Positions 4,878-61,500 of a stretch of DNA of 64,000 bases are shown piece by piece (positions within the stretch are counted from its first letter, which is position 1; each line of letters opens with the position of its first letter). Under the pieces are notes generated by a model. That model made no database searches. It was not told where the DNA came from and saw only the letters and a list, made by a program, of their open reading frames with translations. Source of the DNA: Amoebophrya sp. A120 (Eukaryota; Protista; Dinoflagellata); the NCBI GenBank assembly GCA_905178155.1, contig CAJINV010000005.1, positions 674,564 to 738,563 of the forward strand, in the 5' to 3' direction. The position numbers and the translations under genes were made by a program.

Positions 4878-7800
4878 TCACGCTCCTCGTTGTCGCGAGG
4901 CGGAGGCCGGCACGGCTTGCTTCACCAAAAATCCGAGACTTTCAATCTCTTCGACGACGTCGGCCCGCTGCTCCAAGTGTTGAATGGTGCAGTCCACCCG
5001 CTGTTGCGCAAAAGACACCGAGTGCACCTGGTCCACGCAAGGCAGCACTTTCAGTGCGTTGCGGACCGTCATCTCGCAGTTTCCACAGGTCATGCCTGTA
5101 ACGCCGATGATAATTCGCTCCCCGGAACCACTACCTCCGTTCTGCAACAAACTGGCACTACCCGCGCCCATCGGTTGGGATTGATTGATGCCAGATCCGC
5201 GCTGCAGGAGAAGCTGAGGTTTGTTTCGTGCGGATCATGATGCGAAATCGAAATAAGGGATTTTTCAGCTACTAGAGATTCATATCAACGTTCATCGATG
5301 TAGCAAACGAACCCGAAGAACGCCACGACTTGTTGAACAAAAGGGATTGGGTAGGATGACGACGACAAATGCTAAAAGTTATGCTTCCTTTCGTCAGCAA
5401 CTGGAAGCAATAGTATGAATAAACAGATCTACTGTACATCAGAATCCTTGATTCCGCTCCCGTCGTCGTCTTCGCCAGGTGGAACGATCGCCACCGTGCG
5501 ACCGCCACTGTTCCCCTCATTGTCTCGCATTTGCTCCTCGAGTGCGAACAGCGTCTGGCGCAGCCCCTGCGGGTTGTTCCGCCCTGCGCAGCACGCGGTG
5601 ACCGATTCCCCCACCGGGGCTCGGCTGTTGAACAGAAAGTGGCCGCCGGCGAGGCCTAGAATCACCGCGAGGAAGAGTTCGAAGCTGTAGGTCATGGTCA
5701 ATAGCATGATCAGATACCCGATGGTCATGTTGGCGGCAAACAAGCTGACTTTCACCAGTTTTCCCCCAACGGTTCGCAGATCCGTGTCGATCTTCCTTCG
5801 CACAGACACAATCCACTCCGTGAAAACCCCAAAGGCGACGATGAAGAGAAACCCGAGCGCAAACTTCCAGTGCGTGTCGAGGAGTATCGCGCTGTGAAAC
5901 AGCATGATGCAGTCTTGCTTCTCGGAAGCGAACAGGATCGATTGGAACCCGTTCATGAACATGTCGGTCTCTATCAAGCGCAAAAATGTCTGGGTCTGCA
6001 AGAGTGTAGACTTGTCATGCTGTTTTTCCATCACTCGCGAGGTCTGGAATGCGGGACTAAGCATGACAGCCTCTGCGAGGTCTCTGCCACTGCCATGCCT
6101 ATTCTGCATGAGGAACTCCGTTCCAACTTGGTCCAAAGTGGACAGCTTTTGGCACTCATGCAACACAGATTTTTGCATGCTTCAGATTTACCATGACAAG
6201 TTGCAATCTTCCAGACCCAGACATTTTTGCAATTCATAGTCTCGCTCGGGCCGCAGAACGGGTTCGGTTCCTGAAGATTCACACTTTGAGCATTATTCCC
6301 AGGATTTGGCGCACCCGCCGGGTTCGTGGTGTTCCGCCTTCGCCTGTCCACGTCGCAGTGCAGTTTACAAGTGTGGCCGTTTTTACACGGCTCGAGCTTC
6401 GGGGTGTTGTAGACGCACTGCATGTATGAACTGCAAAAGTATCGCACTCGTATAAATGCATCACAAATTTCCTCAGCATGAGAAACAAAATTTGTAATGC
6501 GGATTTATCTTAGCAAAAGGATTTGTAATGCATGACTGCAATACGAGTACGATACTTTTGCACAGGATAGCACGTCGCGGTCCGGACATTGTTCCAACCC
6601 GTTGGCGTACAAAAAGTTCGACCCGAACTCGCTCCTCTCTTGCTTCTTCTGCTGGTGCTCCTCGAAGGGGCCGGCTTTCGTGTACATGCAGCGGTGCCAG
6701 CACCAGTACCCCCCGTAGGAATCGCAGACGGACCGCAAATGTTTGTTTTTCTCGCTTTCCGGCTCGGCCTCCGCTTCCTGCCGCTCCCGCTCCTCCTCAT
6801 CTAGATCATCGTCTGGTCCTGAGGAAGCGCGGTTGGCGGCTACCAGTTGCGTCTGTGGCGGCGCGAAGTGCTGCTGTACACCGGTGCGAAGGTTGTGGAG
6901 GAAGCCAGGTTCGTCGCCCGCATAATTCTGCGCAGCACTGACTTGAGGAGAAGTTCCTTGCTGCTGTTGCTGTTGATGACCTTGTTGACCTGATGTACCA
7001 CTGCCACTACCCCCCGCTCTAGTTGTACCTAATTGCCTTCTCCGCATCTCTTGTTCTCGCTTGTCGAACCATTCTTCCAGGACCAGGCCCGGGCCGCAGG
7101 CGAGACTGCCAGCCTTGGTGTACTCCCCCTTTCTCAAGAGTGTGGCCAACTCTGAAAAAGGAACGGATTCCGAGTGGCCGAACCTTCCGATGTCGTAGTT
7201 CTGTGGAGGCAGAAGCATCATACCGTACCATAATCTCTTATCAGCAACAGTATCTTGATTCTGAGTAGTAGCACCCTGAATTTGGCTCTGTAGTTCCTGC
7301 TGCGTCTGACCTGCCGACGCAGTATCACTCACCTTCTCGAACCTCACGCGATGTGGCACGGCTCGCACCTTCAGGCCGTTCCGGGCCATGTGCCAGTTGT
7401 TGAAGCCGAGACCTCCCATTATCCTGTGCAAAAACGTCCCCACCCCCTAGTCAAGATGGGGATTTTGCAACACAAACATAGAAGTTTTGGGACTCACGCA
7501 TCACAAGTTGCTGTTCGCAATGTAGTGCAGGTTAGCAAGGACAAACGCATCACAAATCCATCTGCTTATTCTGGTTACAGCATTACAAATGCCAAAACAC
7601 GAATAGAAACGCCTCTCATGGAGTTGCGCATTACACATGTTCCTGTCATTGCAAATCTGCATCACAACTCTGGGATGGGGACATCTTTACAAATGATACC
7701 CATAATGAGCAACCGATCCAAGTTATCGACGTTGACCACAGCCGTCGACTCGTCGGCCAATTCGATTTCGAATATGGTTTTCACCGTGCTAGACTGGTGC

Positions 7801-9296
7801 AAATTTGTCATGGCAAGCAGCAACCCCGCGTCAACGTGCAGAGGGTGGAGCACATCTGTGTTTGCTGTTCGTGGAGTAGCTTCTCCAGTCGCAGCTGTGG
7901 GCGCGGATGAAACCGCAGCCGCGGTTTCGTCGGTTTCCAGGGCCGCTGTTGCGGTAGATCCACGGGGAAGGTTCGAGTTCCCTACTGCGGTCCCAGTCCC
8001 TTCTCCGATAGCACTCTGCGGAGCTCCTGTGGCTTTCACCACGTGGTGAATATGTTCCAGATGTTGTGCCGTGTACAGGAGCTGGGTTAGCTCCTGATCT
8101 TCCGACTTGTCGACCTCATCCAACGCCTGAAGGAGGTTCAGCACCGCGTTTCGCACAAGTTCGCGAAACCGAAGCATTTTGGCCTGGAAACCTGTACGTA
8201 GAAAATCAAATCACTTTCTAGCTTACAGATCTCAACAATTGGAGGCGAGAAACTTCGATTTTGTTGTTGAGAAACTAATAACCCTATGTGCGTGTCGTGC
8301 AAGACCGATTTAACCTTCCAACTTCGGCATCGATGCATCAAACTTTATACCAGGACAATTCTCTTCCGTCACACCCTCGAAGCGTTTCAGCGTTCCGGCC
8401 TGCATGGCTCCCGCGAGCGACTTCCTTGTCCAGCCATTCTCGGTTTTTGACACCGCGCTATTTGGTGCACAGCTCGCGATCGCGGCGTATGGGGCTCTCA
8501 AACGTTACATTCTCAACTGTTGCATGAATTTGTCATGCAAAAACACCATCATCATCCTCTCGATCAAGCTGCTCCGCATGACAAATTTGCGGAGGGCTAA
8601 ATAGCACTATAATCCGTCCCAAATCTGTAATGCGAAAGGCGCAATCTTCCTCCTTGTCCTTTCACTTTTGCCCTTCTTGCATTACAAATTCATGTAACAG
8701 TTGAGAATGTAACATCTGAGAACTCCATACGGCGAACGCCTCGTCTTTGGTTTCCTTGAATCGGGGCACGGAGAGCGTTATCAAGTGCAAAAATGTCTGG
8801 GTCTGGAAGAATGCAAGATTTGTGACGCAGGTTTTCCATGACCCATCAGGTCTGGAATGCGAGACCCAGCATGACAGATTTTTTGAGGTCTCGATCATGC
8901 CTTTCCTGCGTGAGAAACTCCCTCTCAACTTGGATTGGTCAAAAGCGGACAGCTTTTGGTACTCACGCAACACAGATTTTTGCATCATTCAGATTTAACA
9001 TGACAAGTTCTAACCTTCCAGACCCAGACATTTTTGCACTTGATAAGCGTAAGAATTCCCTGCTCGGCCAGAACGGTAGCCACCTCATCGCTCTTCGCCT
9101 GGAGTTCGCCCAGTGCGAAATTTGGCAGCGGGAGGGTGGGCAGAGTCGTTCCGAATCGCGCAGCTGCTGTGCCGTCCGCTTCATGCGACGCAGCTGCGTC
9201 TGATGTAGCCGCGGCGGCGGATTCCACAACCCCTACAATCGACAGGAAAAGGAACGCGAAAGCGCTCAAACCACTCCGGCGATGGTGTCCCGTCAT
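4878..9296 (-). CDS. Multi-exon fusion: signal peptide, 2OG-Fe(II) oxygenase-like domain, Cys-rich region, Ctr copper transporter and probable C-terminal HMA domain
   Basis: Frame is continuous from 9296 through the Ctr domain after removing 5 TIR elements and a GT-AG intron (about 8194-8314). Motifs HVDAGLL...RAVPHRV (HxD...H), Ctr DMFMNGF and TM2 MLLTMTY (MxxxM), and GMTCGNC in ORF 4878-5171. The HMA exon link is inferred. Confidence 0.75.
5972..6238. mobile_element. Family-A TIR introner (267 bp), DR GTCTC
   Basis: TIRs of about 30 bp; removal with one DR gives PFCGPSET|DMFMNGF. Confidence 0.93.
6425..6569. mobile_element. Family-B TIR introner (145 bp), DR GCATG/GCACG
   Basis: TIR core TGCAAAAGTATCG(C/T)ACTCGTA; removal gives CPDRDV|QCVYN. 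Confidence 0.9.
7420..7698. mobile_element. Family-C TIR introner (279 bp), DR CCCAT
   Basis: TATCCTGTGCAAAAACGTCCCCACCCC-type TIR; removal gives LLIMG|GLGFNNW. Confidence 0.92.
8488..8729. mobile_element. Family-D TIR introner (242 bp), DR CGGCG
   Basis: TIR of about 50 bp, TATGGRGYTCTCARAYGTTACATTCTCAACTGTTRCATGAATTTGT; removal gives DEAFA|AIASC. Confidence 0.92.
8779..9045. mobile_element. Family-A TIR introner (267 bp), DR AGCGT
   Basis: Removal gives EQGILT|LSVPRF. Confidence 0.93.
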
Positions 9297-10833: not shown

Positions 10834-12644
10834 TCACAAATCTTGCCAGTTCAGAATGACTTTGCCGGAAGATGACGACACCGCTTTCTCGAACGCGGTT
10901 TGGTAGTCTTTGATCGCGTAGTGGTGCGTGATGATCGGCGAAACGTCGAATCCCGAGTCGAGAACCGCCATCATTTTGTACCACGTCTCGTACATTTCAC
11001 GCCCGTAGATACCTGCGATAAAAGAGAAAATCGCTTTTGCCGCATTTGTGTTTGTGGAATTCGAATCCATAGCCTCTATTGTTGCAGTAGCGGAAGCGCA
11101 ACGGCACATCTTCGTGTACTACCGGGAAGTAACTAACAAATTGATGAGTTAACGAGTTATACCTTTGATTTCCAGCCCCTTGAAAATGACATCGGACCAG
11201 GGGATTTGTGCGGAGTCCGGCACGAGACCGAGCAGCGCGATCTTGCCCCCGTTGTTCATGGTATGAATCATGTTGACAAACGCGTGCTCGTTCCCCGACA
11301 TCTCGTATCAACTGCAAAAATGTCTGGGTCTGGAAGATTCTGAGACTCGTCATGCACGTTTTGCGTGGGCCATGAGGTCTGTGATGCATGCCCTAGCATC
11401 ACAGACTTTTTGAGGACTTCTTGATGCCTATTCCGCATGACAGATGCCCTCTCCGCGTAGCCAAAATCGATTCCCTTTGCTGGTCATGCAATGCAGATTT
11501 TTTTGGAATCCAAATGCAGCATCACAAGTTCGGACTCTTCCAGACCCAGACATGTTTGCATTTGATATCTCGAGCCCGACGTCAAATCCTTCTTTCAACC
11601 CCATTTCGTCGAAAGCGACCTCGGAGAGATCTTCTTTCGCGACGTTGACCACGCGGTCGATCTGGGGCATTTTTCTCGCGAGCTCCAACCGGTAGTCGTT
11701 GACATCGGTGATGGCCACGCGCCGCGCACTGTATTTGGATACATATATTCGCGGTGAAAATTGTGGATGCATAGCTGCATAATATCATAAGTATCTGCAG
11801 TAGAAGAGGTTGCACTAGATTTTCTCATGCAGAAAAAGCCATGCCCTACTAGACAACATTTCCTCCAGTACCCAGCTCTCTTCGCCAACATGGCGCCCAT
11901 GATTCCAATCGGCCCCGCGCCCGTGACCAAGACGTCCTCCCCGACAAGGTCAAATGCGAAGGCCGTGTGCACCGCGTTTCCCAAGGGATCGAGGATCGAC
12001 GCGACGTCGTCGGAGATGGAATCTGGCAGAATAAACACGTTCTCCGCCGGCAGCGCCAGATACTCGGCAAACGCCCCCGGCATGTTGACGCCGATCCCCT
12101 CGGTTTTCCGGCACAGGTGCCGGCGCCCCGCACGGCAATTGCGGCACATCCCGCACACCAAATGTCCCTCCCCGGACACGCGGGTGCCAATTTTCAGGCC
12201 CTTCTGCGCCGCGCCCTCGCCCATTTCCACGATCTCGCCGGAGTACTCGTGGCCGACCGTGAGTCCGACGGGCACCGCGTTCTGCGCCCAGGGCGTCCAC
12301 TTGTAGATGGACACGTCGGTGCCGCAAATCGCGGTCTTCTTGATTTTTATCAGCACGTCGTTATAGCCCGGCTTCGGGATCGGCACCTCGTTCATCCAGA
12401 TCCCCTCCTCCGCGTGCACCTTTGCCAACGTACGCATCGACGCAAAGTTTCTTCGAGATGTTCTTGCGGTAGAGCTACTCGACGACGATGTTGCCGACGA
12501 TGGAGGTGCAGTCGTGTTTGCGACCACCGGCGAGCAAACGAAGGAACTTGCCTGCCTCGACGAAGACGCGAGCGGCGCGGTTGCCGCACGACTGGCCGAT
12601 CGAACAGCGCCAGAACGGCGGAGATTCTTCATCTGGTGGAGCAT
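10834..12644 (-). CDS. tdh: L-threonine 3-dehydrogenase, Zn-dependent bacterial type, with N-terminal extension
   Basis: [41 protein letters not shown] and [14 protein letters not shown] closely match E. coli Tdh as I recall it; two GT-AG introns (about 11730-11871 and 11013-11162) and one TIR element. Confidence 0.95.
11306..11567. mobile_element. Family-A TIR introner (262 bp), DR TCTCG
   Basis: Removal restores the conserved Tdh motif GLE|MSG. Confidence 0.96.
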
Positions 12645-13190
12645 AGTCACAGGAGTCGTAGGAGTAGGTAAATACAAGCACAATCAAAACTAGTAGAAAT
12701 TTCAAACACAACTTTGTTTGGTGTGGTCCAGGACAAGAGCACAGAAAATTAGTATTTAGTAATCGAAACGTCACGATGATTTTAATAATGCGAAATCGAG
12801 CGCAATCAGACTTGCTCCCGAGCAGGAGTCTTTAGGATGGGGATTGACATGAATCACGAAGAACGGAGTTGACTCAACACCGATCAAGAAGTTTGGTACA
12901 CGAGGGAATTAAGTGAATAGGGCGGGGTAAGCAAGTCAGTTTTTAATTTCCTGGGTTGATTATTTTTGGTTGCTGTATGTTGTGTCACCAACAGCTTTCA
13001 CTGGTGTTGGTTGTACTAGGGTTGCAGCAAGAGTTCTACTTATTTGGACAATCTTACTCTCGCAACACTCATTTCATTCACTGCTCCGCTCGGTCTCCTT
13101 ATTTGATGCTTGTCACTGTCGCGAGAAATTCTCAAACCCGCTGTTCTAGACCGAAATGCGACTGCCGCGCAGAGGGCTGCTCCATCACAA

Positions 13191-16202: not shown

Positions 16203-19200
16203 TCACTCTGTTTTCTCACGTGCAGATGATGCAATACCCGCAACAATGCCCCCGGATGAAATACTGTCCGCCAATCCTCTTCGCCAGTTGAAGTACCAGC
16301 GTTCCAGCATCCGCGAGATAAACATCCAGATTGTCGTGAACGCACACAAGCAGGCGAGCCACACGGCCGTCACCTTCAGCGTCGTCCATACCGGCCACGG
16401 GGCGACGGGGTTGGACATGAGAAAACCGAACTTGAGCCCCACCAGCAATTCGGTAAGCGCGGTTCCCAGCCCAAACCACGCGTAGGTCCCAAGGCGGCCC
16501 ACGGTTTCATCGATGGCGAAGAGGTAGACCTGATTGAGATTTCCGCTTTGAAATTGCGATTGAACAGTTCTGCCACTAAATAGGTAAAGCAAAACCGTTG
16601 ATCTTGAAGTTGTAAACCGGAAGACCATCATATAAATATCCTCTCGTCCCGTTAGTACCTGCCGACACGCGGGAAGGCAAAGCAGTGCCCAGAACAACAG
16701 TCGGTAAATGTTCAGCTTGTGCGGCGAGGGTATTTCGAAGATGTTTTTGAGAATGAAGGCGTTCAGCTCCACGATCTGGTTCACGAACACCATCAGGATG
16801 CAGACGACGTATCGCTTCCGTGTCTCCAGCGGTTTATTGCATGGAAAAATGCCCCCGCCCTCGAATCTGGGAGCATTTGTATTGCAAACCTTCCCCAATG
16901 AAACGTTCGCCCTCTTGCGCCTATCAGCATCACAGATGTCGAATCGTGAATAACAAAAATTTGTATTGCAAAAGATCTCAGCAAGAGCGGCGCTTCTCAT
17001 GCAAACAATGCGATATACGCCTCGCCTCTGCATCAGAGAGATTCATACTCCTTTCATGCATGACAAAGAGCTTTCATTGGAAAACTTCGCATCACAATTC
17101 TTGCAAATGTGGGGGTGGGGGCATTTTTCACTGTAGTACGGTTCCCATTGGATTTTCTCCAGCTCCCGCCCGTCCTTGGCGGAGAGCATCAGGTAGATTT
17201 TCCGCTTCTATCCTATGTAAAAACGTCCCCACCCCATAGTCAAGATGAGGAATCAGCTAGACAACTCCACGAGTTTTGGCTGTTTTGCATGACAAATTTG
17301 CACTCGTAGCGCAGTGCTGTTTGAGCTAGCTCAGCAGCATCACAGATCTACTCTATCACGCTGATTGGAGCATGACAAATTCCAAAACACGACTGGAAAC
17401 GCTTCTCATGGGGCTCCGCATGAAAAACATTTTCAGCATGCAGATTTGCATGACAACTCTGGGGTGGGGACGTTTTTAAACAGGATAGCTTCACCTTCGT
17501 CTTCAGTCGTTTACTAATCGCGCGAAGCTGGCTCTTCGTGCGGCTGGCGCGCGAAGCTTGGATTGGCTTAATATTGGGAGTTGCAATATTCATCGCCGCG
17601 GAAGATGAGGAGGAACTTGATTTGTGCTCTTGCGCCTGCGAAATGTTCATGTTCATCCCGGGGTTGTTTTCATCTTCCGTCCCTGTTCCAATTCTCGGCG
17701 GCGGTGTTGACGACGATCCTGCCAATTGTGGTGGTTTTATCGTCACTGCACGAGGAGGACGACCCTCTTCTTGTTCAACCACTTCGGCAGTTTTGCTTTT
17801 GGTCTGCCCCGAGACTACATTGTTCTCACTCCTGCTTCCTTTGTCTATCGCTTCGAGCACGAACTCGTCGTCTTGCTCGCTGCTGGCGTGGTCGCTGTGC
17901 CACTCGTAGTGCGGGACCTCGAGCCAGCGGCAGAGTTCGATGCCGAACCAAATTCCCAAGCCGTTGCAGATGAGCACGTCGGCCACCCAGCTGTCCCACC
18001 AGCACTCGGAAAAGTTCGGCAGAATGTAGGCAAAGAACAGCTCCGTGATCTCCCAAAAGACACTCATGATCCAGCACAAGGTGTAGTTTCGCACCATGAG
18101 ACCCTTGGCCGCCCACCCGAGAAAGTGGCACGTGACGAACACCTGGTTTGTGTAGTTCTTCAAGTATAATTTTCTGCCAGTATCCTTCATTTTGCACCAC
18201 GACCGATGTTGACCACCAGCTCAACTACTTGAGCAAACAAAATCTCATTTTCACTAGTACTTCTAGCAAGAGTAAAAAACAATTTGATACGTCAAACTTC
18301 GATTGCATGTTTTCCCAAGACAGCGTGCAATCGCTCGCGTACTCTGGGGAGTCCAGGAAGCTGACGGTTACCCAGGGGAGCGGGTGCGGATTCCACCTTT
18401 CCGGTGTCAGCTCGTCTGGGTAGAGCCACGCTAGAGCGGCCCGGACCTGGTCGTACTCGGCGCAGAGAATGAACATCAGAGTCACCCAATAGATCAAGGT
18501 CAATCCCAACACCAATCTCCACACAAGCGGGTGTGGCCGCTCGAAGGGCCCATCCGGGAAGGACACCGCGGCCACGGTGAGGATCAGCACCGAGGACGCG
18601 AGCCAGCCCTTCCAGAGCAACTTTGCGGGGTTGCCGACGGTAAGGGGCGAAGAAGGGTCGCGGGGGACTTGATTTGCGGAAATTGGCGGCGAAAGGCGGC
18701 GCTCTGTAGTTGTATCCGGTGTCGCGGAGTCCTCTCCGCCTGCACTTGCCGCTTCATCATGACGCTGCCAAGGCCAAAGGATCATGCTAGGAGCTGTTGC
18801 TTCTTCTACGTCCCTCTTTTTCTTTGATGTGTCGACCCGATCTTCACCGCAAACCGTGTTGACAAACTCCGTTTTCATACCGGTTTCGGCGAAGTACTTC
18901 GAAGGATCGTCGCCTCCTTCGGCTGCTGGTACACCGGTCCGCGCGCTGCGTTCAAGATCTGTCATTCTCCCACCCTTCTCTACTGTCTCCCTGTACTCCT
19001 CCACCTCGCTCCAGCAGGCGAAAATGAACAGCACCGTCAACAGGCAGCACAGCATATGCATTGCAAAAGCATCGCACTAGTATAAATTGCATCACAAATT
19101 TTGGCAAGAGGGAAAGTGGAATTTGTATTGCTGTTTTCCCTTAGGAAAAACATCTGTCATGCACATTTGCTATTAGTACGAGTACGATACTTTTGCACAG

Positions 19201-19579
19201 GATACAGTACCGACACCGACCGCGGGCGGGAGAAAACCCGAAAATTCTCGACCTCGTGCTCCCACCTGCGCCAGGTCGTCTTTTCCACCCAGAGCCGCTG
19301 TTTTCGCGGCAGCGGGCTGCTCGCGGCCAAGAAGCGGCTCCTGCTCGAGGAGGAGCCTTCTTCCCCAGAGGCAAGCGCCTGCTCCTCGTCGCGGTCGCTG
19401 TCGGTCGTCATGCCGCTGGCAGCTGCTCCAGCTCCTCCAGAAGACCCCTGCATCGAAAACGGGCTGCCCCCGGCCTGCGCCGCGTCGGAAAGCTTCTGGG
19501 TTGTACTGCTAGTCCGGGTAATCTGGGGCGTGCCGTTCTTGTTTCCGTTCTTGTGCAAAATTGGCGAGCGCTTGAACAT
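16203..19579 (-). CDS. Phosphatidylserine synthase, base-exchange (PTDSS1/2) type
   Basis: FPDGPFERPHPLVWR, HFLGW, LPNFSECWWD, DVLICNGLG and ELNAFILK motifs; three TIR elements and two GT-AG introns. Confidence 0.92.
16835..17138. mobile_element. Family-C-related TIR introner (304 bp), DR CGGTT
   Basis: TIR core GAAAAATGCCCCCRCCC; removal gives IQWEP|LETRKRY. Confidence 0.9.
17209..17487. mobile_element. Family-C TIR introner (279 bp), DR GCTTC
   Basis: Removal gives KTKVK|RKIYL, in frame with the next exon. Confidence 0.92.
19055..19204. mobile_element. Family-B TIR introner (150 bp), DR CAGCA/CAGTA
   Basis: Removal gives RPRSVSVL|CCLLTVLF. Confidence 0.9.
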
Positions 19580-20564: not shown

Positions 20565-23500
20565 TTATCTTGGCACGGGGCAAAACGAGCTCTGCACGGG
20601 TCCCTGGAAGGCGTTGGCGCCGGCCGTTGGGTCTGGGGGCGCGGGCGGCGGCGCCTCGGCGTTAGTTGAGGTAACGATGATCTCGGCTAAGCGCTTGAGC
20701 TCCACCTCGGTATCGGACTCCAACTCGCGGCGGTCGATGACTTCAAAAGGAATCATTTCGTCGTCGCTCGGGACGTAGGCGTCTACGCCGTCGATGTTGA
20801 GCTGTGGCATGGGTTTTGATGAAGTCTAAGTCTATGTAAGTACTTATGCACCATGTCATGTTGATGATGCTGATCCGAAGAAGAGGATCTTCGTGAGCCT
20901 AGTACATACGGGTGGTCCTCTGGATGTGATCTCTAAACACGACTCCGATTCCCAGCAGAAGTGCGCTAACCAGAAAACCCACAGTTCCCTATTAAGTAGT
21001 ACCGTATCTGGCGGTGCCACGACTGTCATCTGCGACGAGGAAACTTTCCGCGGTGGGGGCAAGGAGGGCTCCGAGGCTTTCTTGGAAAGCTGCTCGTCGG
21101 AGTTGTGTTTGTTCTCCGTGGCGGACGCGCAGCTTCCAACCTCCTCGCGGATCGGCGGCGGCCGGTCGATGCTCCGCTTTTTCCGTTGCCTAGTCAGGGG
21201 AAGACTGGTGCCCGGGGGTGCCTGTTCGGGCGAGGTGTAGCGTCGGATGCTGCAGTTGCTCACTCGGAGCCCCGTGGTCAAGTTGGTACCACCTTTTCGT
21301 TTAACAGGTATACGGTGTAGTTTGTCATTGTCTTCCATTCTGGAGACCATGAGATCAACACCATAACACGACCAAAAACAAAAACTGTATACAATTTAGA
21401 ATTGCATCAAAAGCAAAACCAAGTGAAGTGAAGTGAAAAGTAGCACGATCTAACATCAATATATCTACTACGAGTACCAGGCTTAATATTCCCCTGCTGC
21501 AGATTCGTTCTCGTCGACGACGATGCAGTGGTCGGCGAGATGTGCCGATGATTCACCTTTGCCTTGACCGTCGCTTTCGCATTCGCACCAAACCCGGTCG
21601 TCGCTCCACCCCTACTCGTCCCGCCGCCCAGCTTTGGTAACGATGATTGCGGCGCGGGCGCAAAGATGTTGGTGATCGTGCGGGATTGGTTTTGGTACAG
21701 AGCCGGCTGGTGCACGTATGCCGCGTGCGGGCCCGGACTGGTCCGGCTCGCCTGCGTGTGGTTGCTGGAATTCGACAGGTAGCGAGGGCGGGGACCACCT
21801 GAGAGCGTGCTGGTGGACCCCATAGTACCCGCGTTGGTCGTGGACGCAGTTGTCGAACTGGAAGAGCCACCCCCTGCGACGGTGGAATTGTAGCTACTGG
21901 TGCTGTGTTGGTTCCCCGGTCCGAGCAGGCTGAATTGATGCGCTGTGTTCGCTCTCGTGTGTCCCCGTGACCCGGTTCCCGTGCCGCCTCCGCTGCCCGC
22001 TTGGTGCGCACCGGCCGATGTTCCACCTCCGCCAAGCATGACCGATTTCTCCGAGCTGACGCGCTGCATTCCCTGCTCCACCACGGAACGCTTTTGATGG
22101 GTCATAGTTCCTGTGTTTCCCCCCCGCCGCTGCAGCCGAGAGTCCGGGGAGACGTGCGCGTACAAACGACTGCGATCTGGGGAACGGTAGGTTGTCGTTG
22201 TGTGCTGCGACGCCCCGTGCGGTTGCGTGGTATGATTTTGCAGCGGCCGCGACGGGCTGATGCGTTTCGGCGCGGGCTTGCTGGCGTGCGGCTTCAGCGT
22301 AGAGCCGAAAGCGTGGGTTGTAGAAGCGCCGCTGAGCGGACGGCTGGACAGGTTAACCACGGGACCGCTGGATGTGTTGCAGCTGGTGTTATGTTATACT
22401 GGATTTCGATTTTTCCTTTACATGCTATGTTCTTCATCCACTTTTGACATCTACTAACGTCGCATGTTTATTGCGTTTCATATTTTTTGACTTTCTCTGA
22501 AGAAAGAAGAGAAATAAGGGCAGGTCCAAGCACAACACAAATCCCGCTTTCAATACGTTGTACCTGCCCGTCGCCGTGCCGAATCCCGACGGCTGCCAGC
22601 GATTCGCCACCGACGGTGGCAGTAGTGTGCTTGGCTGCCGTATCAAGTGCAAAAGAGTCTGGGTCTGGAAGATTGCAACTTGTCATGCTGTTTTTGGACT
22701 CTAAAAAAATTTGTATTGCACGACCAGCAAATGGGGTCCAGTTTGTGCTACGCGGACAAGGGATTTCTCATGCGGAAGGCGCATCAGGAAGCCCTCTAAA
22801 AGTCTGTGATGCTTCGTCATGCATTGCAGCCATCATGGGTCATGGGAAATATGCATGACAAATCTCGCAATCTTCCAGACCCAGACACTTTTGCATTTGA
22901 TATGCCGGCTCGTCTCGACCCTGCTCCGCTTCACCGAGGACCAGTACAGCTGGCGACACATATGAAAGCCTCAGGTTGGAAATCCTCAAAGTGAAAATAA
23001 TTTGTAATGCAAAAAAACGACGCCAGTTCGAGCACCATTTATAGTCGGCGCATGACAAATTTCCCGGGCACTCAAAGCGTGTTTGTCATGCTAGTTAGGC
23101 AAAGGGGTGCCCTTGTCCCATGCTAATCAGCAGGCCAATTCTGAACCCGTAGAAGCACAGTAGTCGGCCTCCATTGCGTTCTCTGCAATACAGTCTTTTT
23201 GGTGTCGCATTTCATGCATCACAAATTATTTCCACTTTGAGGATTTCCATTCTGAGGGTGTCATAACAGGCCGCGTCCGCGTGCTGCGGCGGCGGGGACA
23301 GGCTCGAGCTCGCGCCGTAGTCGCCGTCCAAGGGACTAGCGGAGGAGAAGGTAGTCGTCGACCCGGGGATTTTATCAACCGCAAAAATGTCTGGGTCTGG
23401 AAACTTGTGATGCAAGAAAGGGAATAGTGAACTCACTATAATGCGCTGCCAAGCATGACAAGTTTTTTCCATGGTTCTGAGTTGCGTACTCCGCATGAGA

Positions 23501-37801: not shown

Positions 37802-38384
37802 TAAGTTAAGACGATTTCGAAGTGTGCCTCGGCTTGTTCCACAGAAAAATGGCCATTCGTTTTGAACAACAAGTTGGTGCGCATTCTCGTCCGAGAAGAA
37901 CCATGCGGCGCAAACAGAACACCATCAGTCTCCATGCTGAAAAAGTCCAGTGGCTCTATGATTCCGAAGCCACGAGTTGTTGTTCCTTACATATGCAAAA
38001 GTAGTTCCACTTCCAGCTTCCTTTTTACCACTTTTCATCAGAACCGCCTTGTGTGCTGTCAGTAGAGAAGCAGCAGGGTTTCCAAGTTCCAGCACACGAC
38101 GTGACCGTTTGTTCTGTTCCCGCAAAGAAGCTCCTCCGCACAATGGAGTTGGAGCCACTACAGTCGCATTTCTGTCCGTGTCAAAGGTGATCTTGATCTT
38201 CCACAAAGCGAATATGTGAAATCCGAATCCCAATCAACGCGGTAGTTCTTTTTAGTAGTACATCAGAACAAAAACAGCAGGAGAAAGACACCAAGCATTA
38301 TTGATGATGTCGTGAATCCTGTACTTTGCTCCTCCGCAGGTCGTGAAAACCAGCCCGATAATCATCAAATGAGGATTAAACTTC

Positions 38385-43681: not shown

Positions 43682-45240
43682 CTACATTTCAATCAGCTCC
43701 ACGACTTGTTTCATGATTGTTGGATTCGCAGCGGCCACGATCCGTCGTCCATCCAGTTCCTTCGCGAGCATTTTTCCCGTGTAATCCGCAATGACGCAAC
43801 CCGCTTCTTGGCAAATCAGGATTCCCGCAGCCACGTCCCATTCCTTTATGCCCGTTTCGAAGTAGCAGTCTAATCTCCCGCAGGCGACGTTGCACAAGTC
43901 GCACGCCGCGGATCCGGAGCGGCGGAGGTCCCGGGATTCAAGCACGACGGCCATGGTGTTTCTCGCGACCGTCTCTTTTATCCGGTGCAAGGCGGCGATC
44001 TGCTTTTCATCCAGTTCATCCCGACGGGTCGTGTCTCTTAACTTCGCCAGTTCCTGTACCTGAAACCCTGTTCCTACAAGAGATTCCTGCAGTGTTTTGC
44101 TGCTCGCGTTTCGGCGTGACAGTGCGATCTTCTTTAGTTGCACCGTGATGTTCGTCGATCCAGGCTTTCTTGTTTTACTTTCGAAGCACTCCAAGAAAGC
44201 TCCTTTGCCCCGTTCCGCCGCAAACAACTCGTCCAAAATCGGGTTGTAAACGACGCCAAGAACCGGTTCGAAATTTATCAAATGTAAAAACGTCTGGGTC
44301 TGGAAGATTGAAACTTGTCATGCTAAATCCGAATAATGCAAAAATCTGTGTTGCATGAGTGCCAAAAGCTGTCCACTTTCGACCAAGTTGGGAGGTAGTT
44401 TCTCATGCGGGATAGGCATGGCAGAGACCTCACAGACTCTGTCATGCTAAGCCCTGCATTCCAGACCTCATGGGTCATGGAAAATCTGCATGACAAATCT
44501 AGGAATCTTCCAGACCCAGACATTTTTACATTTGATAAAATTCTCGTAGTACCCGATCGACACGCCGACGTACGGCACGCCGTGCACGAAGTTGGTCGTC
44601 CCGTCAATCGGGTCTATGATCCAGGTTTTGTCCGCGGTCAGTTTCGAAACCCCCTCGATCGCGGTTTCCTCCCCGAGGATCTTGTGGTTTGGGAAGTCGG
44701 CCAGGATCGCTTCCGTTATTATTTTTTCTACCGCCACGTCCACTTCGGTAACCAGGTCGGCGGCGGAGGCTTTCAACTTGATGTCTACGTCCGATAAATC
44801 AAAAAACACGTCTATCCTGAGTAAAAACCTACCCACACCAGAGCCAGGATGGGGATTTTGCAACACAAACCTAGGAGCTTTGTGAGTCACGCATGACAAG
44901 TTGCACTCTGCAGTGTAGTGCAGGTTAGCAAGTGCAGCCGCGCCACAGATTCATCTGCTCATCCTGTTCACAGCATCACAAATTCCAAAACACGACTGGA
45001 AATGGCTCTCATGCGGATGCGCATTACAAGTCTTCCTGTCTTTGCAAATCTGCATTACAACTCTGGTGTGGGTACGTTTTTACTCAGGATAACGTCGTTT
45101 CCGAGGCCAAAGCTGGCGCGAATCCGGTCGCCGACACTGCGAGCAAGAGTTGTGACGAACGAGAGCTCGGGGCGGAGTTCTGTTGCAGATGTGTGCGGTG
45201 CCGGTGCAGCGTCGTCAGTGCCTGCTTCTGTTGGCGCCAT
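43682..45240 (-). CDS. Inositol monophosphatase
   Basis: DLVTEVD, ILGEE, WIIDPIDGTTNFVHG, GSAACDLCNVACG and WDVAAG; interrupted by two TIR elements. Confidence 0.95.
44276..44537. mobile_element. Family-A TIR introner (262 bp), DR AAATT
   Basis: Removal gives SIGYYEN|FEPVLGVVYNP, a conserved IMPase segment. Confidence 0.95.
44813..45091. mobile_element. Family-C TIR introner (279 bp), DR ACGTC
   Basis: TIR TATCCTGAGTAAAAACSTACCCACACCAGAG; removal gives LGND|VFFDL. Confidence 0.93.
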
Positions 45241-46343: not shown

Positions 46344-49300
46344 TTACTCCGCCGCTCCTCTTTCCAACGCCCTCCGCCCTGTCGCATCGACGACTTGCCG
46401 CCCCCCTGCATCCACCACGCTGCGACAAAACGGGCACTTGTAATGCGACAGGCGCAGACACTCCCGGTGCAACCCTTGCCGGCCCTGGCAGCACTGTAGC
46501 TGTACCCAGTTCGACTCTACTGTGGGCGACGACGAGGTCGATGATGTTGTTCTACTACAACCGGAGCAGTAGTTTGCCTCTCCTCCACGACCTGTTCTTG
46601 CCCTTGATCTCGATGGCGCTCGCGGTGTAGTACCGCCGTTGGTCGTACGACCACTTCGAGTTCTTGTGGTCTCCACCACACTTCCACCGCTTCGCCAAAA
46701 CCGCGGCAGCCGCACCCGGAACAGCGGGCTGAAGCCGTATCAAATGTAAAAGTGTCTGGGTCTGGAAGAATGCAACTTGTCATGCTAAATCTGAAGCATG
46801 AAAAATCTGTGTTGCATGAATACCAAAAGTCGTCCAGTTTTGACCAAGTCGGGAGGGAGTTTCTCATGCAGGATAGGCATGAGAGAGATCGCGCAGAATC
46901 TGTCATGCTAGGCGCTGCATTCCAGACCTCATGGGTCATGGAAAAGCTGCATGACAAATCGCGCACTCTTCCAGACCCAGACATTTTTACATTTGATAAG
47001 CCGCGCGGACCGACAAAGTGGACGGACCAAAAGCGGCCGCCCGCCACGGCCGACTCGTCCGGAAGCTGGTCGGCCAGCTCGCCCAGAGAAAGGGACCGAA
47101 CTAGAGGTTGCACGTCGAGGACCTCCAGAGCGTGCTGTGCAGCAGCTGGAGGTCCCGTCATAGTTCGTTGTCCACCTCCGTGGAGCCCTGAAGACGTGCT
47201 ACTACCTCCTGATCGACGTCCCGCGCTGCGGCTACGAATGATCACGGGCGAACTGTCAACAGCGTTCGGCGAAAACATGGTCCTCGTGCTTCTATCGCCT
47301 TCTTCTATAAGGACCGCTGGCCTCCACCCTCGTTGTGCGCGGACATTTGTTTGTGGGGTACCACTACCAGTTGCAGCAGGCAGAAGATTGTCGTCGGCCT
47401 GTTCAGAATCCCCCGCCTCTTCCCCCTCCTCACGCTGGAACTGGCGCCGCATCTGCGCACTGCCACACCAATAGGCCAGCACCCGCAGGAACTTCTCGTA
47501 CGCCATCTCTATCGGTGTGGTTTTCGGCGCGAATCCGGACCTGCTGCGGGCGGATTCCATGCACACGACGCAAATTGCGTCCTCGTCAGGTTCGACGTGC
47601 AGGGAGGACGCACTCCCGAGAGAACCGGAGCTGCGGGTTTGCAGCGGGGCGTCCTCGTCTTCGCTGTTGGGGGAAGGAGTGCTGGAGTTGCGTGGCTGAT
47701 GATCAACATCCGGAGATGATGACAACTGCGCAACGCCACCTGGTGTGTGAGCTTGTTCCCGTCTTCGCCCTCGCGGCGTACTGCTGTGCTGCGGAGGAAG
47801 AACGTCAGGATTCTGTGGCTGCGCGCTGCTCCCGTCACCGCTCTGCTGCGCTAGCCTCGGGAAGGAGGACATGATCCTGCGGTTGACGTGATTGTCGGTG
47901 GAAAAAGGCGCCTCTGCGGGGGAGGTCGGCGTACCGTTTGTGGTCGTGCTTGACGGAGTTCTAGCGTTGCTTCTGTTCGCAGCTGGTGCAACAGAATTCC
48001 GGCTCTCGCTGCTCTCCTGGTGCCCTCTCCGGTCTTGCCGCCAACCAAGTGTGGCCGCAGAAGTTCTTGTGCCGCTTGACGGGGGCACTCTTGCCGCCCC
48101 CTGCCCTCCGCTTTCACGATTCGAGTGGTAGTTCCGGTCAACATTTCTGCTTCTTCTACCACCTGCCTCATCTATCACAGGCGGCGGTGGCGGAGGTACC
48201 CCGGCTAGGGGTGGAGGCGGTGGAGGGGGCGGAAGAAGATCCTGTTGATGCTGCTCCGCGAATGGAACAAACTCCTCCTCGTTCCCCTGCGCATGATGCT
48301 GTGCAGATGTGCTTGTCCCTTGGCGCCACTCTAGCGCTTGCGACATTCGGGAATAAGCTTCCTCGCGCACTTCCCTATTAGAGCTCGCCGACGAGGACAC
48401 GCTACCGCTGCTCCACGGGCGGCGCAGCACGTGCCGCAGAGGGTCTTCCGGGATCAAAAATGAGGAGGACCCTATAATTCGTTCATCTACCGCCAAATCG
48501 TCACTCGAAGAGCCTGGCGCCCGCGTAGTACTAGTACTAGATGAGGCAAGAGACAAGGTGCGGTTCGAGAAGCTTAACACCCGCCGAAGCATTTTATCAA
48601 ATGCAAATATGTCTGGGTCTGGAAGAATGTATGTTTGTCATGCTTGTCTGGCATGACTCTTAAATCTGCCATGCATGTTACCCAAGAGCCCCACTTTTCT
48701 GTCATTCAGAAACGCAGTTTGTCATGCAGAATAGGCAACACCTAGAAGCTCAAAAACTTGTCATGCTGGGCCAGCTCTTGTGGCCTCCTCATGATACGCC
48801 ACCCAGCATCACAAATTTCCAGACCCAGACATTTTTGCATTTGATACATCTTGGCCATGGACGAAACCTCCTCTTGATCTTCTGAAGGTACTGTTGACGC
48901 GTTATTCATCATCTCGCCGTTGTTTTGCAACTCACGAGTTGGGGTCTGCTCTGGCTCTTCTCGCACGGCAGCAGTTCTTGCTGCGGGGCGAATGGGCGTG
49001 GTCCTAAGTAGACCACTTCCAGTCGTAACGTCGGTACTAGTAACATCAGTGGGCAGAGCGGAAGATGCGGCCCTGGTCGTCGTGGTAGTCAAAGTTATTC
49101 CGCTTCTTGGGCTTCCCGCAGCTGCACTAGTATGTGCAGCTGCAGGTCGTGGTGCTCTACTACTTGCAGCTCCAATCACGGTTGGCCGTTCAGCTTGTTC
49201 TTGTTGTTCGGTCGGGGCTATAGAAGTTGTGGAGGAAACCAGTGAACCCGCTCCGACCACTGGGCTTCTCGGCGTAACAGGAAGTTGTAGGCCCGCACTC

Positions 49301-58519: not shown

Positions 58520-61500
58520 TCACGCCACAGCGCTTTCTATTTCTTCCCTCGCGAAACCCAATTTTTCCAAATTCTCTTCCGTTAGATTTGGACTGCGATT
58601 CCACAAGTAGCTGTGAAGTCTGACACCTAGCGCCTATCAAATGTAAAAATGTCTGGGTCTGGAAGAATGCGAACTTGTGATGCGTGTTGCGGATGATACA
58701 AAAATCTGTGTTGCATGACTTGCAAAAGGTCCCCATTTCTCGCCATGCTCAGAGGGCATTTCTCATGCATAATGGGCATCAGCAAGGGGCTGCAGAACCT
58801 GTGATGCTATGCCCTGCATTCCAGACTTGGTGGACTGCATGACAAATCTCGGAATCTTCCAGACCCAGACATTTTTACATTTGATAGCGCCGTACCGTGT
58901 ACCATGTGCACGTCGAGAATTTCTACCTTCTCTGGCTGGACCAGAATCTGATTCACCCGGAAAAGCACATCGTATCTCCGTCCATACTCCGGAAACGTCA
59001 CGCAGGTAGAGGTCCTCCGGCGGTGGGACTGCGACTGGGAGGTAGCAGTACTAGTAGTGCTCGTACTTCCCTTTCCGTCGTGCTGCGGCGACACAATTCT
59101 GCTGCGTACCGACCGTCGCGACCTTTTCGGAGTTGGAGAAACTTCCCGGTAGTTTGCCAAAATTCTTTTACTAGGTCTTCTTGCTGGGCTCCTGCTTGCG
59201 TAGTTTTCATCTGTTGTAGTGATGTTGTTTCCTAAAAATTCTTCTCCGCCAGGGGGTGCTGTTGCTCCTCCCCCGCGCAACAGCACGTCGTAATACAGCC
59301 TGTCCTTCCGAACCCGAAAGGTCACCAGCAAGGTGATCGGCAAAGGGCAGTGCTTCGCCGCGTAGTGCTCGGCGGTCGCGAGGGTATTGGTGAGATACAG
59401 ACCCGGGCCGTAGAAGCCGGTGGCAGACGGGTGGAAGCCGAGGAGGTGAATCCAGGGAACGTTGAGCAACCCGGTGCCGTGGTACCCGCGCAGGGTGATA
59501 AACTCATCGTCACCTTCATCAACAACATCGTAGTTGACGCTGTTTCTACTAGTCGTGTCAGTTGGATTTTTTTCCACTTCGTGCAGCAGTTGTGGCCGTG
59601 ATGGTGTAGTAGAAACTGCGCCGCAAAGTTTTCCAGTGATCATCTTCCCCACGCTCCACTGTAAGGGACTAGTACAGTCACCATCATCATTGTCGCTAAT
59701 AGTATCCTCGAGCGTGGAAATTGCCTCAGCAGCGGAGTCGTCGTCACTCTTGAAGTCATCAACCGCTTGGTCGTTTGGTGCTGCTTTTTTGCGTGTTGAA
59801 CACTCTACTTCACGAGAGCGCTGTGCGGACCGTATGATTGAAACTCCTGTTTCCGCGTGCGCATGAGCTACTGGAGGTGGAGGCGCTCCTCTTTCAGATG
59901 GAGTTGTAGATGCGTTAGAGCTTTAACACCCGTTAGCATGAGAAGTGGTGAGTTTGTAGTGAATTTTGCATGACAAATAGCAGAGGAGACTGCCGGGACA
60001 TTGTCCCTTTTGCTCTTCTGGGAAGTGGGTTCTGCACACCGCAGAAGTTAGTTGTCCAGGCTTATGCGGCGGGCAGCTGGACATGGCCTGGGCGTCATTC
60101 TTTGGCCATGTGAGTTTCGTCTTCCTGTGCTTGCAAAAGAGCAAGCACTGCAGCAGCCGCGGCAAACACGCCAAAAACAAGAGCCGCGAAGCACATAAGC
60201 GCAGTTTAGGCAAGATGAAGGCGCGGAAGCAAAGGCGAAAGGACCCGGCCGAGAGCTTTGACGCGTCTATCCGGCAGGCGCGTGAACTCTCCAGGCCTTT
60301 TCGGCAGAATATAGAGGCGCTTAGGGCAACAGCGGGCGCCTGTCTTTTCCCCTCGGCCCCACTTCCCAGGGTCTACTTGTGCGTTTTTTTGAGCACTTTT
60401 CTGCGCTAAACTTTGCTTATCACGGTCGAAAAGTGGCGCTCGGTGAATTTTGGGGTGAATTTTGAAAAGGACGCCGGTGAATTTTGTCCTCCGGCTCCTT
60501 TTCAAAATTCGCTAGCGCGTGAGAAACTCCGGGTTTTGGGGCTTCAACAAAGTGTCGCCAAAACAAAAAGTCCCAAAATTCACCAAGGGAATTCTTGACC
60601 TGGGGATCACGTCGAATAAGACTTGCTCCGGAGGCAAAAAGACACGTGGGGAGTTGTGAGCAGAGCACAGCAGGCGAAGCAAGCTAGCGTCCGCGGCCGA
60701 ATCGTGCCTCCCCTTCCACCCGAGGCTGCTCCCAGATATCCAAGTCCAAGCCGAGCCAACCACAACTCGTGAGAGCATACATGTTGAACTAGTGCCCCTG
60801 TGTTCAGGCGTCGCCCTCCCTTTCGACCATTTCGGAGAGGAACTTCTGAGGCAGACGCGCAGAAGAATAAGAGCCCCCCGACCCACCTTCTCTGGTCGCT
60901 AGATACGCACTACACAGCCCGGCGAGCCCCCGCAAGACCACCTCTTTTGGTGCTGCAAGCGCCACCACGCGACGAGCAGCCCTTCAGGCTATGTGGTATG
61001 CTTGGGCTCGTGTCCATACGTAGCGCTCTTCTCTTTTAAGTAAATGCAAGTCATGCAATACAAATTCACTGCAAATTCACACTTCTGTACGCTAACGACC
61101 GTTGAAGACATAGGTGGAGGTGCTCCTCTTTCAGATGGAGTTGTAGATTCGTGCGCCGTGCGCTCCTGCCGCCCACAAGGTACCTAATTCATTCTCAATC
61201 TATCCAACGAACTCAAGACATCACATTCTAGGCATCACAAGTAGGACTAGGTCGCGCAGCGCCAGCGCGAACCTCGTGAGGGCCGGAATGGGCTAACCAC
61301 CTCTGTGGTCCCATTTTTGTACACAGAATTCCGACAACCATCGGAATTTGCCCGTGACCGATGCCCAAGCGGACGGTCAGCGAGAGCAGGTGGGGAGGGG
61401 CCCAACCTCCCGCGACTGCCACGCGCGCGCACGTTAAGGTCACGTACCGATATGGCGAAGCTGATGACGCTGGTCGCTAATGCAGGTGCGTCCTGGGCGA

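Follow-up and report, generated by a model that had tools for sequence, protein, structure and literature searches.

Introner elements of the marine parasite Amoebophrya sp. A120, a class within its non-canonical introns, were described by Farhat et al. 2021 (PMC7789003). The sections of that paper drawn on here give them ends of TAT, 7 nt and three or more A, direct repeats of 3-5 nt and a length of about 240 nt. The same sections report many families, RNA-seq support, a hairpin model and no transposase found, and state that nearly all spliceosome proteins are present together with U2, U4, U5 and U6, and that U1 was not found. About 60% of the parasite's introns are removed although they have no GT-AG ends and no U1 was detected, which raises a question of mechanism.

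Three other systems come close. MITE-derived introners of Micromonas, Aureococcus, Symbiodinium and others (PMC9860276, PMC12130899) are likewise non-autonomous, with TIRs and TSDs, and their removal restores the message; these introners carry or co-opt GT, GC or GA and AG, whereas a canonical register is available in only 27 of 244 A120 elements. The nonconventional introns of euglenids (PMC12501133, PMC11282704), in the parts of these sources used here, are also non-GT-AG, with inverted repeats near the ends and repeats at the junctions. Their signature is CDG/CH'G with spacers of 3 and 5-6 nt, and their exons begin with a purine, in contrast to TAT/ATA and a total spacer of 5 nt in A120, where we found that neither the repeat nor the sequence following it prefers any base; furthermore, release as circles is shown for the euglenid introns. 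The non-canonical introns of Fritillaria borealis (PMC11282704, PMC13326754) are transposon-derived as well, with TIRs and TSDs, and are excised by an adapted U2 spliceosome. These keep preferred ends (AG-AC, AG-AT) and U1, whereas the A120 elements have no preferred dinucleotides and U1 was not found.

Here we analysed a window, i.e. the whole 64-kb stretch of A120 DNA in which positions are counted, and a comparison set (loci L001-L139, 507 kb; the loci). The elements in the window share with the published A120 introners the organism, the ends, the repeats, the removal from RNA and the families, and measured against the sections of PMC7789003 used there is no difference in kind; the arms are 25-35 bp here against 8-20 nt there, and the repeat keeps a constant length of 5 bp. 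Lying in the A120 genome, with TAT-N7-A-run arms and a direct repeat, removed without GT-AG and spread genome-wide in families, they are, to our minds practically certainly, the published introners. The initial annotation had suspected this identity, and it is borne out by the match to those sections and by the threonine dehydrogenase (Tdh), which with its element spliced out equals letter for letter the public protein P0001, which is labelled Amoebophrya sp. A120. Any claim to novelty falls with it, as the elements, the 5-bp repeat, the RNA-seq support and the hairpin proposal already stand for A120 in the same sections; the class and these very copies were published and annotated before, and our finding is a rediscovery. 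What we did not find in the text of PMC7789003 used here are a test of orientation, bounds on the cut register, an internal motif shared between families, and a peak in spacing.

Anatomy and families of the elements

In the window there are 27 inverted-repeat elements with TA ends, 140-305 bp long (listed without strand).

5972..6238, introner A, 267 bp: perfect repeat; Ctr-domain gene; RNA by exact spliced length
6425..6569, introner C, 145 bp: repeat 4/5; transcript-upstream copy kept in RNA
7420..7698, introner B, 279 bp: RNA contig piece ends at the repeat, one side only
8488..8729, introner D, 242 bp: RNA joint skipping 247
8779..9045, introner A, 267 bp: RNA joint skipping 272
11306..11567, introner A, 262 bp: threonine dehydrogenase gene; RNA by exact length; spliced protein equals P0001
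16835..17138, introner E, 304 bp: TAC at transcript 5' end; PSS gene; RNA by exact length
17209..17487, introner B, 279 bp: PSS gene; RNA by exact length
19055..19204, introner C, 150 bp: repeat 4/5; upstream copy kept; joint skipping 155 in 4/4 RNA runs
22641..22902, introner A, 262 bp: from sequence; no RNA joint among those listed, thin cover
22961..23265, introner F, 305 bp: repeat 3/5; no RNA joint among those listed, thin cover
23373..23626, introner A, 254 bp: from sequence; no RNA joint among those listed, thin cover
23687..23938, introner A, 252 bp: from sequence; no RNA joint among those listed, thin cover
25485..25745, introner A, 261 bp: from sequence; no RNA joint among those listed, thin cover
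28611..28872, introner A, 262 bp: RNA joint skipping 267
28914..29124, introner G, 211 bp: RNA joint skipping 216
29900..30134, introner D, 235 bp: RNA joint skipping 240
30532..30671, introner C, 140 bp: RNA joint skipping 145
31327..31599, introner A, 273 bp: repeat 3/5; indel breaks arm; upstream copy kept; RNA joint skipping 278
31900..32164, introner A, 265 bp: RNA joint skipping 270
32224..32474, introner A, 251 bp: orientation opposite to 31900; RNA joint skipping 256
32940..33201, introner A, 262 bp: RNA joint skipping 267
44276..44537, introner A, 262 bp: inositol monophosphatase gene; from sequence; interrupts Pfam Inositol_P
44813..45091, introner B, 279 bp: IMPase gene; from sequence
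46738..46998, introner A, 261 bp: from sequence
48595..48846, introner A, 252 bp: repeat 4/5; from sequence
58635..58886, introner A, 252 bp: sole window element with a GC-AG register; from sequence

The grammar first proposed for these elements, TA-ended TIRs within a direct repeat that differs at each site, stands in that all 27 are present and all 27 repeats are different, whereas the 5-bp repeat is perfect at only 22 of them (4/5 at 6425, 19055 and 48595; 3/5 at 22961 and 31327). Pairs of TA ends whose 5-bp repeat is perfect and whose arms have no more than 9/25 mismatches number 22 in the window and 0 in 10/10 Markov shuffles; element 31327 was picked up by reading the sequence, and then confirmed by RNA. 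The split into six families, with four members of C type, has to be redrawn into seven (A x16, B x3, C x3, D x2, and singles at 16835, 22961 and 28914), the 211-bp element at 28914 being a family of its own, G.

Terminal TAT...ATA is present at 53/54 window ends, the sole TAC being at 16835, and A occupies positions 11-13 in 87-94% of 620 ends; the A-run is missing in families D and F (3/27 window elements). An internal motif of ~12 bp is common to all seven families, occurs without strand bias (692:661), and probably marks a protein-binding site. A set of 310 elements falls into 28 clusters, and the depth of run X1 reaches about 3e5 over elements compared to about 45 over unique DNA; the elements are repeated genome-wide as families. 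Rfam covariance models at gathering score gave 0 matches in the window, and the 20-nt arm motif 0 matches in viral contigs.

The repeat is 5 long in 244/314 elements of the loci, with at most 9 for each of the lengths 3, 4, 6, 7 and 8, and is likely a target-site duplication. No window element has coding capacity, and each one either shifts the frame or is closed by stops in every frame; TIRs, lack of coding capacity and a duplication of constant length, as in MITEs, are all found here. A transposase was found neither among 15 ORFs of the window, of which 8 lie at 59.9-62.4 kb, nor in five longer TIR-bounded stretches of the loci (507 kb), which hold only unrelated inserts or neighbouring elements. 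No empty or orthologous site was seen among the 139 loci, one weak match aside. Neighbouring elements lie 35-94 nt apart three times oftener than expected by chance. Local hopping was considered as the source of this close spacing and rejected, as 9/72 close pairs are at least 62% alike and none reaches 85%.

Loss of the elements from RNA

The host genes are five, all on the minus strand.

5429..8177, minus strand: Ctr copper-transporter-domain protein, 680-aa model; three introners
10834..12644, minus strand: L-threonine 3-dehydrogenase, 416 aa; one introner and two GT-AG introns
16206..19579, minus strand: phosphatidylserine synthase (PSS); three introners; three Pfam PSS pieces; RNA
27597..34099, minus strand: 1,250-aa protein; eight introners and five GT-AG introns; no Pfam match in the last exon
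43682..45240, minus strand: inositol monophosphatase (IMPase), 335 aa; two introners

As the initial annotation had it, deleting each element with one repeat copy (5 nt) on the minus strand restores the frame, yielding Tdh of 416 aa, IMPase of 335 aa and the Ctr-domain protein of 680 aa; the same deletion across eight elements gives the 1,250-aa protein. The Tdh pieces flanking the junction align to PDB 5kia, one as far as residue 246 and the other starting at 249, and the two junction residues fall between them; Pfam Inositol_P stops and picks up again at position 114 across element 44276. Because of the stops in all frames or frame shifts, Tdh, IMPase and PSS would be impossible if the elements stayed.

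The element and exactly 5 nt are absent from RNA contigs at at least 16 of the 22 sites examined (positions up to 33,500). For 11 of those 16 there is a joint among those listed, in each case equal to element+5, and the remaining 5 follow from exact spliced length (181=181, 303, 238=238); for element 7420 the additional RNA evidence is one-sided. A single RNA contig (depth 284-367) joins across 8/8 elements of the gene at 27597..34099 and also drops 4 GT-AG introns. This evidence consists of cDNA contigs from one study and two samples, the joints resting on the contigs, since the raw RNA runs X10 and X11 contained two element-like pieces and the locus itself was absent from them. RNA runs also contain element ends joined to flanks of other loci, as unspliced RNA would.

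These joints support what had been proposed from the DNA, namely that the elements behave as non-GT-AG introns, and removal very probably occurs at the level of RNA. A single contig shows both orientations being removed from one transcript, and family A is oriented 62:71. Copies facing both ways are removed, and therefore strand-specific signals are ruled out.

Position of the cut

The initial annotation had found no canonical register at the tdh and 44276 junctions, and indeed none of the equivalent registers gives GT-AG, GC-AG or AT-AC at either; the tdh junction has seven of them, not six as counted before, and 44276 has six. Such a register is available at 1/27 window elements (58635, GC-AG), at 27/244 in the loci and at none of the 16 RNA-supported elements, nor at 7420. 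GT-AG, GC-AG or AT-AC ends do not characterise this class.

Imperfect direct repeats are natural markers of the cut site, and at 3/3 informative sites of this kind the upstream copy is kept in RNA. At one of these, 31327, the two sides of the RNA joint have only 2 letters in common, and the stem is at least 3 nt away. Because the upstream copy is kept at all three, the cut falls behind base 3, 4 or 5 of the repeat, provided that one rule holds. Repeat mismatches in 50 elements are distributed over transcript positions 1-5 as 16, 19, 9, 5 and 12, and positions 1+2 differ from 4+5 on the transcript (p=0.018), compared to 28 vs 24 on the record strand; when only repeats with a single mismatch are counted, the bias in position is not significant (10, 11, 6, 3, 9; p=0.24). 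The idea from the window that mismatches occur at positions 1-3 only was dropped, as 17/61 in the loci are at positions 4-5. Differences between repeat copies are synonymous in 21/31 cases, where at most 42% would be expected if one copy were free intron (p<=0.0034), and this excess points to a sliding cut or to gene conversion, and away from one fixed register.

Candidate removal machineries

So what exactly removes these elements? The earlier proposal of removal without U1/U2-type signals holds as far as strand-specific splice signals are concerned, which are absent, but it is overstated, as the terminal TAT does fit +2 to +4 of the GTAY donor of this genome, in which 7/7 RNA-supported canonical introns start with GTA and 6/7 with GTAY. 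TAC variants occur at the 5' end of 4/210 elements of the loci, as well as of 16835, and at the 3' end of 1/210. The repeat is without splice-signal bias (loci, n=244); its would-be +1 base is G in only 77/244, and a 3' AG arises in 21/244. Branch-like CTRAY shows no strand bias among 283 elements (23 sense, 24 antisense), a strand-specific branch point near the 3' end was not seen, and base composition of the elements is without strand bias. Because orientation, branch and +1/AG signals are all lacking, a spliceosomal reading is hard to square with recognition through U2AF and a branch point.

Guidance by a hairpin, as the annotation had it, agrees with the pairing predicted on the transcribed strand, where stems are strong for all 27 elements (z of roughly -4 or below with 8 shuffles per element; -8.4 for the tdh element, 200 shuffles), whereas selection for RNA pairing was not detected, G-U vs A-C being 229:236 for arms in the loci on the transcribed strand and 17:10 to 27:18 in the window (p 0.07-0.26). 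Furthermore, no more than 6 of the first 25 pairs of 31327 form in register, and yet it is removed.

The explanation we prefer, evenly poised between right and wrong, is that these are MITE-like inserts with a 5-base duplication, missing from mature RNA, that are cut out by an altered U2-type spliceosome. We lean slightly towards the spliceosome as the catalyst, and consider a U2 variant no less likely than a new activity. All families would be inserted with a 5-base stagger by a single transposase or integrase working in trans, which may recognise the TAT ends and the shared internal motif. In the transcript, the arms of 25-35 bp are predicted to pair and draw the ends together; the element and 5 nt would then be lost, in either orientation and without GT-AG, as seen in the contigs, with the upstream copy retained, as seen at the three sites. 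If the cut fell after base 4, which is plausible but just short of what we would favour, the intron would start with N-TAT, matching +2 to +4 of the GTAY donor, and at its end the final four bases of the exon would be duplicated, standing in for AG.

Somewhat unlikely is a separate, non-spliceosomal machine like that of Euglena, in which a protein would read the TAT/ATA stem, perhaps with the internal motif, cut 0-2 nt outside it on the 5' side and 3-5 nt on the 3' side, ligate the exons and free a circle. The orientation independence, the lack of strand bias in composition, motif and branch-like sequences, the random repeat, the strong predicted stems on all 27 transcribed strands and the U1 not found in A120 would all suit it; moreover, the Euglena introns leave as circles and, in the parts of the sources used, their inverted motif is also set in from the cuts, with a 5' spacer shorter than the 3' one. 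The fit of the TAT end to the host donor, the arms lacking a G-U over A-C bias and the removal of the poorly paired 31327 speak against it. To our knowledge, no such splicing enzyme is known in alveolates. Quite unlikely, in our estimate, is a second, spliceosome-independent mRNA splicing system in Amoebophrya, with one factor, possibly domesticated from the transposase machinery of the elements themselves, that would recognise the internal motif together with the paired TAT ends, whichever the strand, and with exons being joined anywhere within the 5-nt duplication; if true, any insertion would be harmless, and new copies could land 35-94 nt from old ones.

Precise excision from DNA in the expressing stage, as for the internal eliminated sequences of ciliates, was also put forward, and we consider it highly improbable. 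With RNA never containing the elements, it would account for the transposon anatomy, the DNA-type motif on both strands, the orientation independence, and both repeat copies being seemingly constrained as coding. The DNA-like run X1, with even 40-46x cover of unique DNA and contigs that drop rare variants, lends it no support, as the 8 long contigs listed continue without a break from flanking sequence into the ends of elements and no skip of element+5 is among the 15 joints listed of a longer list; element ends joined to other loci's flanks in RNA runs, and mismatches polar relative to transcription, argue against it as well.

A hairpin with a direct repeat is a classic setting for template switching, and the joints being switches of reverse transcriptase across it is barely credible. 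All RNA here and, in the sections used, in PMC7789003 is cDNA, and the main text of that paper, as used here, leaves template switching unmentioned, but a switch at the base of the stem would bring the downstream copy along, whereas 3/3 informative sites keep the upstream one, 31327 joins on 2 shared letters away from the stem, retained elements would bring stops or a frame shift, and one deep contig lacks 8/8 elements.

Introners of the window and their published counterparts

The window and ten Markov shuffles of it were searched for TA..TA pairs whose 25-nt arms are complementary. In the window, 22 elements have a flanking 5-bp repeat that is perfect, three have a repeat identity of 4/5 (6425, 19055 and 48595, elements being named by their start coordinate) and one of 3/5 (22961), while the shuffles held no pair with a perfect repeat and none with six or fewer arm mismatches. 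The 27th element, at 31327-31599, was read from the sequence rather than from the scan; one of its arms carries an indel, and its repeat is 3/5. The elements measure 140-305 bp, together occupy 10.5% of the window, and belong to seven families (A with 16 members, B and C with three each, D with two, and three single members). All 27 repeats differ, as the initial annotation had stated, and its claim that deletion of an element plus 5 nt restores the frame holds as well, since long minus-strand frames are opened in this way. Every element is either closed by stop codons in all three frames or causes a frameshift. The spliced models comprise threonine dehydrogenase (Tdh, 416 aa), inositol monophosphatase (335 aa), a Ctr-domain protein (680 aa) and a protein of 1,250 aa across eight elements; 7 of the 13 pieces scanned match Pfam (ADH_N, Ctr, PSS, Inositol_P), and on PDB 5kia the Tdh pieces abut at residues 246 and 249. 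No Rfam family matched in the window.

Each of the 27 elements interrupts a coding exon of a minus-strand gene. Two gene-bearing stretches of about 10 kb, 33202-44275 and 48847-58634, are free of them, the former containing a single 1,009-codon ORF (34895-37924) with no Pfam match.

The top match of the first Tdh exon is P0001, a public protein of 416 aa labelled Amoebophrya sp. A120, at 100% identity. The spliced Tdh model equals P0001 letter for letter, and therefore the public annotation already removes the tdh element. In the accessible parts of Farhat et al. 2021 (PMC7789003), non-canonical introns of about 240 nt make up more than 60% of those with RNA support in A120, with 29,850 repeated introners in 1,954 families, whose arms read TAT, seven variable bases and at least three A, and which are flanked by direct repeats of 3-5 nt (5 bp in the legend of Fig. 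S19). The introner class suspected at the outset thus matches these published introners; the window elements are the same ones, and the finding is already known, in the same genome. The same parts of that paper report most spliceosome components as detected, U1 as undetected and no A120 transposase as found, and propose exon joining via hairpins as possible. In its main text the terms subterminal, internal motif, template switch and excision are absent, and its figures (logos, S19-S25) could already display parts of the cut register, donor fit and internal motif described below. In the literature, with subscription journals thinly covered, we found no later work demonstrating a removal mechanism. 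Ours is a rediscovery, yet the splicing problem behind it is unsolved, and the imperfect repeats offer a direct way to test it.

As for Tdh itself (10834-12644), its best named relatives, three eukaryote-labelled matches aside, are gammaproteobacterial at about 72% identity over the query, and by this likeness a bacterial origin is possible.

Absence of the elements from RNA

Of twelve runs listed, seven were compared with the window (X1, X3-X6, X10 and X11). The four contig sets X3-X6, from two samples of one study, were presumed to be RNA; they drop GT-AG introns, and therefore represent spliced RNA. They were compared over 5500-25400 and 18900-33500, with 22 elements inside these stretches and five outside. 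In the first stretch, joints in X5 skip 247 and 272 nt, which are elements 8488 and 8779 plus 5, and the exact lengths of three contigs match removal of 5972, 6425, 11306, 16835 and 17209 (181 = 181; 303 once two GT-AG introns, 150 and 143, are subtracted; 238 = 238); support for 7420 is one-sided. In the second, one contig present in 4/4 runs skips eight elements (267, 216, 240, 145, 278, 270, 256 and 267 nt) as well as four GT-AG introns, at a depth of 284-367 in X3, X4 and X6, and another skips 155 nt at 19055. The contigs thus bear out the removal stated in the initial annotation for 16 of the 22 covered elements, which are missing with exactly one repeat; one more is half supported, and for five no joint was among those listed.

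The locus is absent from the raw RNA-read runs X10 and X11. Hundreds of X10 reads do cover element-like pieces corresponding to 8959-9045 and 23152-23268, fused to other flanks, and one such piece adjoins a loose end that we take to be adapter-like; the pattern looks as if a transcript started within an element at some other locus.

Polarity, cut register and mode of removal

For a wider sample, a family-A arm search of another assembly yielded at least 139 loci (507 kb) with 358 candidates. Strand was assigned to 314 of these by a codon model that had been trained on the window (208 of 212 confident assignments match the locus majority), and the 44 that lacked a strand or a flank were left out. 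Repeats are perfect in 244 of the 314, 4/5 in 39, 3/5 in 11 and fewer in 20. Five is the only common repeat length, as expected of target duplication, and the repeat sequence has no splice-signal bias in these loci. Any canonical register is available in 27 of the 244 perfect-repeat elements and in one of the 27 in the window (58635, GC-AG). At tdh, the earlier count of six cut registers has to be raised to seven equivalent ones; that none is canonical stands.

Insertion phases are not equally frequent in the loci: 98, 76 and 52 of 226 elements have the start of the repeat at codon position 3, 2 and 1, respectively. The outer ten bases of the ends occur in a few variants, which are mixed across both ends of single elements and common to several families, in window and loci alike. 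Pairing between the arms is found in only 45-75% of elements at positions 4-7, and in at least 96% at positions 11-13. Four loci elements with intact ends and repeats hold 180-700 bp of unrelated DNA, so that internal length seems to be free.

Insert-bearing elements among the loci
L055:4001-4972, insert with an A-rich run at its end, set between duplicated copies of about 17 nt, resembling a non-LTR insertion
L036:3862-4492, insert-bearing element
L035:571-1051, insert-bearing element
L018:4314-4770, insert-bearing element

Orientation is irrelevant to removal: family A lies 62:71 relative to transcription, and a single spliced contig has lost elements of opposite orientation (28611, 31327 and 31900 versus 32224 and 32940). 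Neither base composition nor branch-like motifs (23:24) nor the internal motif (692:661) shows a strand preference. At 6425, 19055 and 31327 the transcript-upstream repeat copy is kept in RNA, and the cut therefore falls after repeat base 2 or later, and at 31327 after base 3, 4 or 5. In 50 loci elements, mismatches between repeat copies number 16, 19, 9, 5 and 12 at transcript positions 1-5 (positions 1+2 versus 4+5, p=0.018; 28 versus 24 when counted on the record strand; p=0.24 for single-mismatch repeats alone). These counts hint, if modestly, at a role of identity near base 4 and at a process that follows transcription. With a cut after base 4, the element would start N-TAT. The RNA-supported canonical introns start GTA in 7/7 cases and GTAY in 6/7, and the rare TAC ends are, in small numbers, five at 5' and one at 3'. 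The commonest A120 splice sites in the accessible text of PMC7789003 all have T second, a pattern that the placement chosen by an aligner could cause. Of 31 differences between repeat copies, 21 are synonymous, as against an expectation of at most 42% with one copy free; this counts against a fixed cut, and could be due to a sliding cut or to gene conversion from empty alleles.

How, then, are the elements removed? We put at roughly even chances that they are MITE-like insertions with a 5-bp duplication, taken out of pre-mRNA by an altered U2 spliceosome, in which the paired arms would define the intron, TAT would act as donor and the duplication would take the place of AG. A precedent for spliceosomal adaptation is described in the available portions of work on Fritillaria (PMC11282704; PMC13326754). 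Guidance by a hairpin, part of the original claim, keeps its stems, predicted on both strands; G-U in the arms is not above A-C (229:236), a count that lends no support to selection for RNA pairing. A separate ruler-type machine, as in Euglena (PMC12501133 and PMC12621601, in part), is a possible but clearly less probable agent, and mixtures of explanations appear unlikely. Excision at the DNA level is more doubtful still, as long contigs of X1, a DNA-like run of unrecorded kind, pass unbroken from the flanks into element ends, and no skip of an element plus 5 was among the X1 joints listed. That the joints are products of template switching is very improbable, since this predicts retention of the downstream copy, the opposite of what 3/3 informative sites show, and leaves the production of the host enzymes unexplained.

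Internal motif and spacing of the elements

An internal motif, approximately RRYYTGTSATGC, is present in about five copies per element (1,450 sites in 310 elements). Its core GCATNACA reaches 13.4 per kb inside window elements and 0.21 per kb in the rest of the window, and all seven families contain the 7-mer CATGACA, the pattern having been chosen from these same sequences. Because the motif lies on both strands, and by comparison with known TIR transposons, it is most simply read as a putative subterminal transposase site. As to the mobilising enzyme, a possible lead comes from the accessible part of PMC12130899, which notes that one introner family of A120 has TIRs together with integrase-like ORFs.

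Of 221 pairs of neighbours, 67 are separated by 35-94 nt, mostly with different families in the pair, against 9-10% expected, although the choice of loci by family-A arm may inflate this clustering; five pairs are closer than 35 nt and five lie at 155-214 nt. The spacing suggests that new copies inserted next to the footprint of a protein on an older element. For many introners, an insertion bias towards linkers is reported in the available text of PMC9860276.

Close-neighbour gaps in the window
8729-8779
17138-17209
22902-22961
23626-23687
28872-28914
32164-32224

At 59916-61112, an insert of 1.2 kb separates two copies of a 48-nt exon repeat. Its inverted arms, gapped and about 65 nt long, contain the introner internal motif, and it has TA at both ends, without a 5-bp repeat; its three ORFs have no Pfam match above the cut-off, and it has no match among the 139 loci. 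It is possibly a decayed longer member of the introner system.
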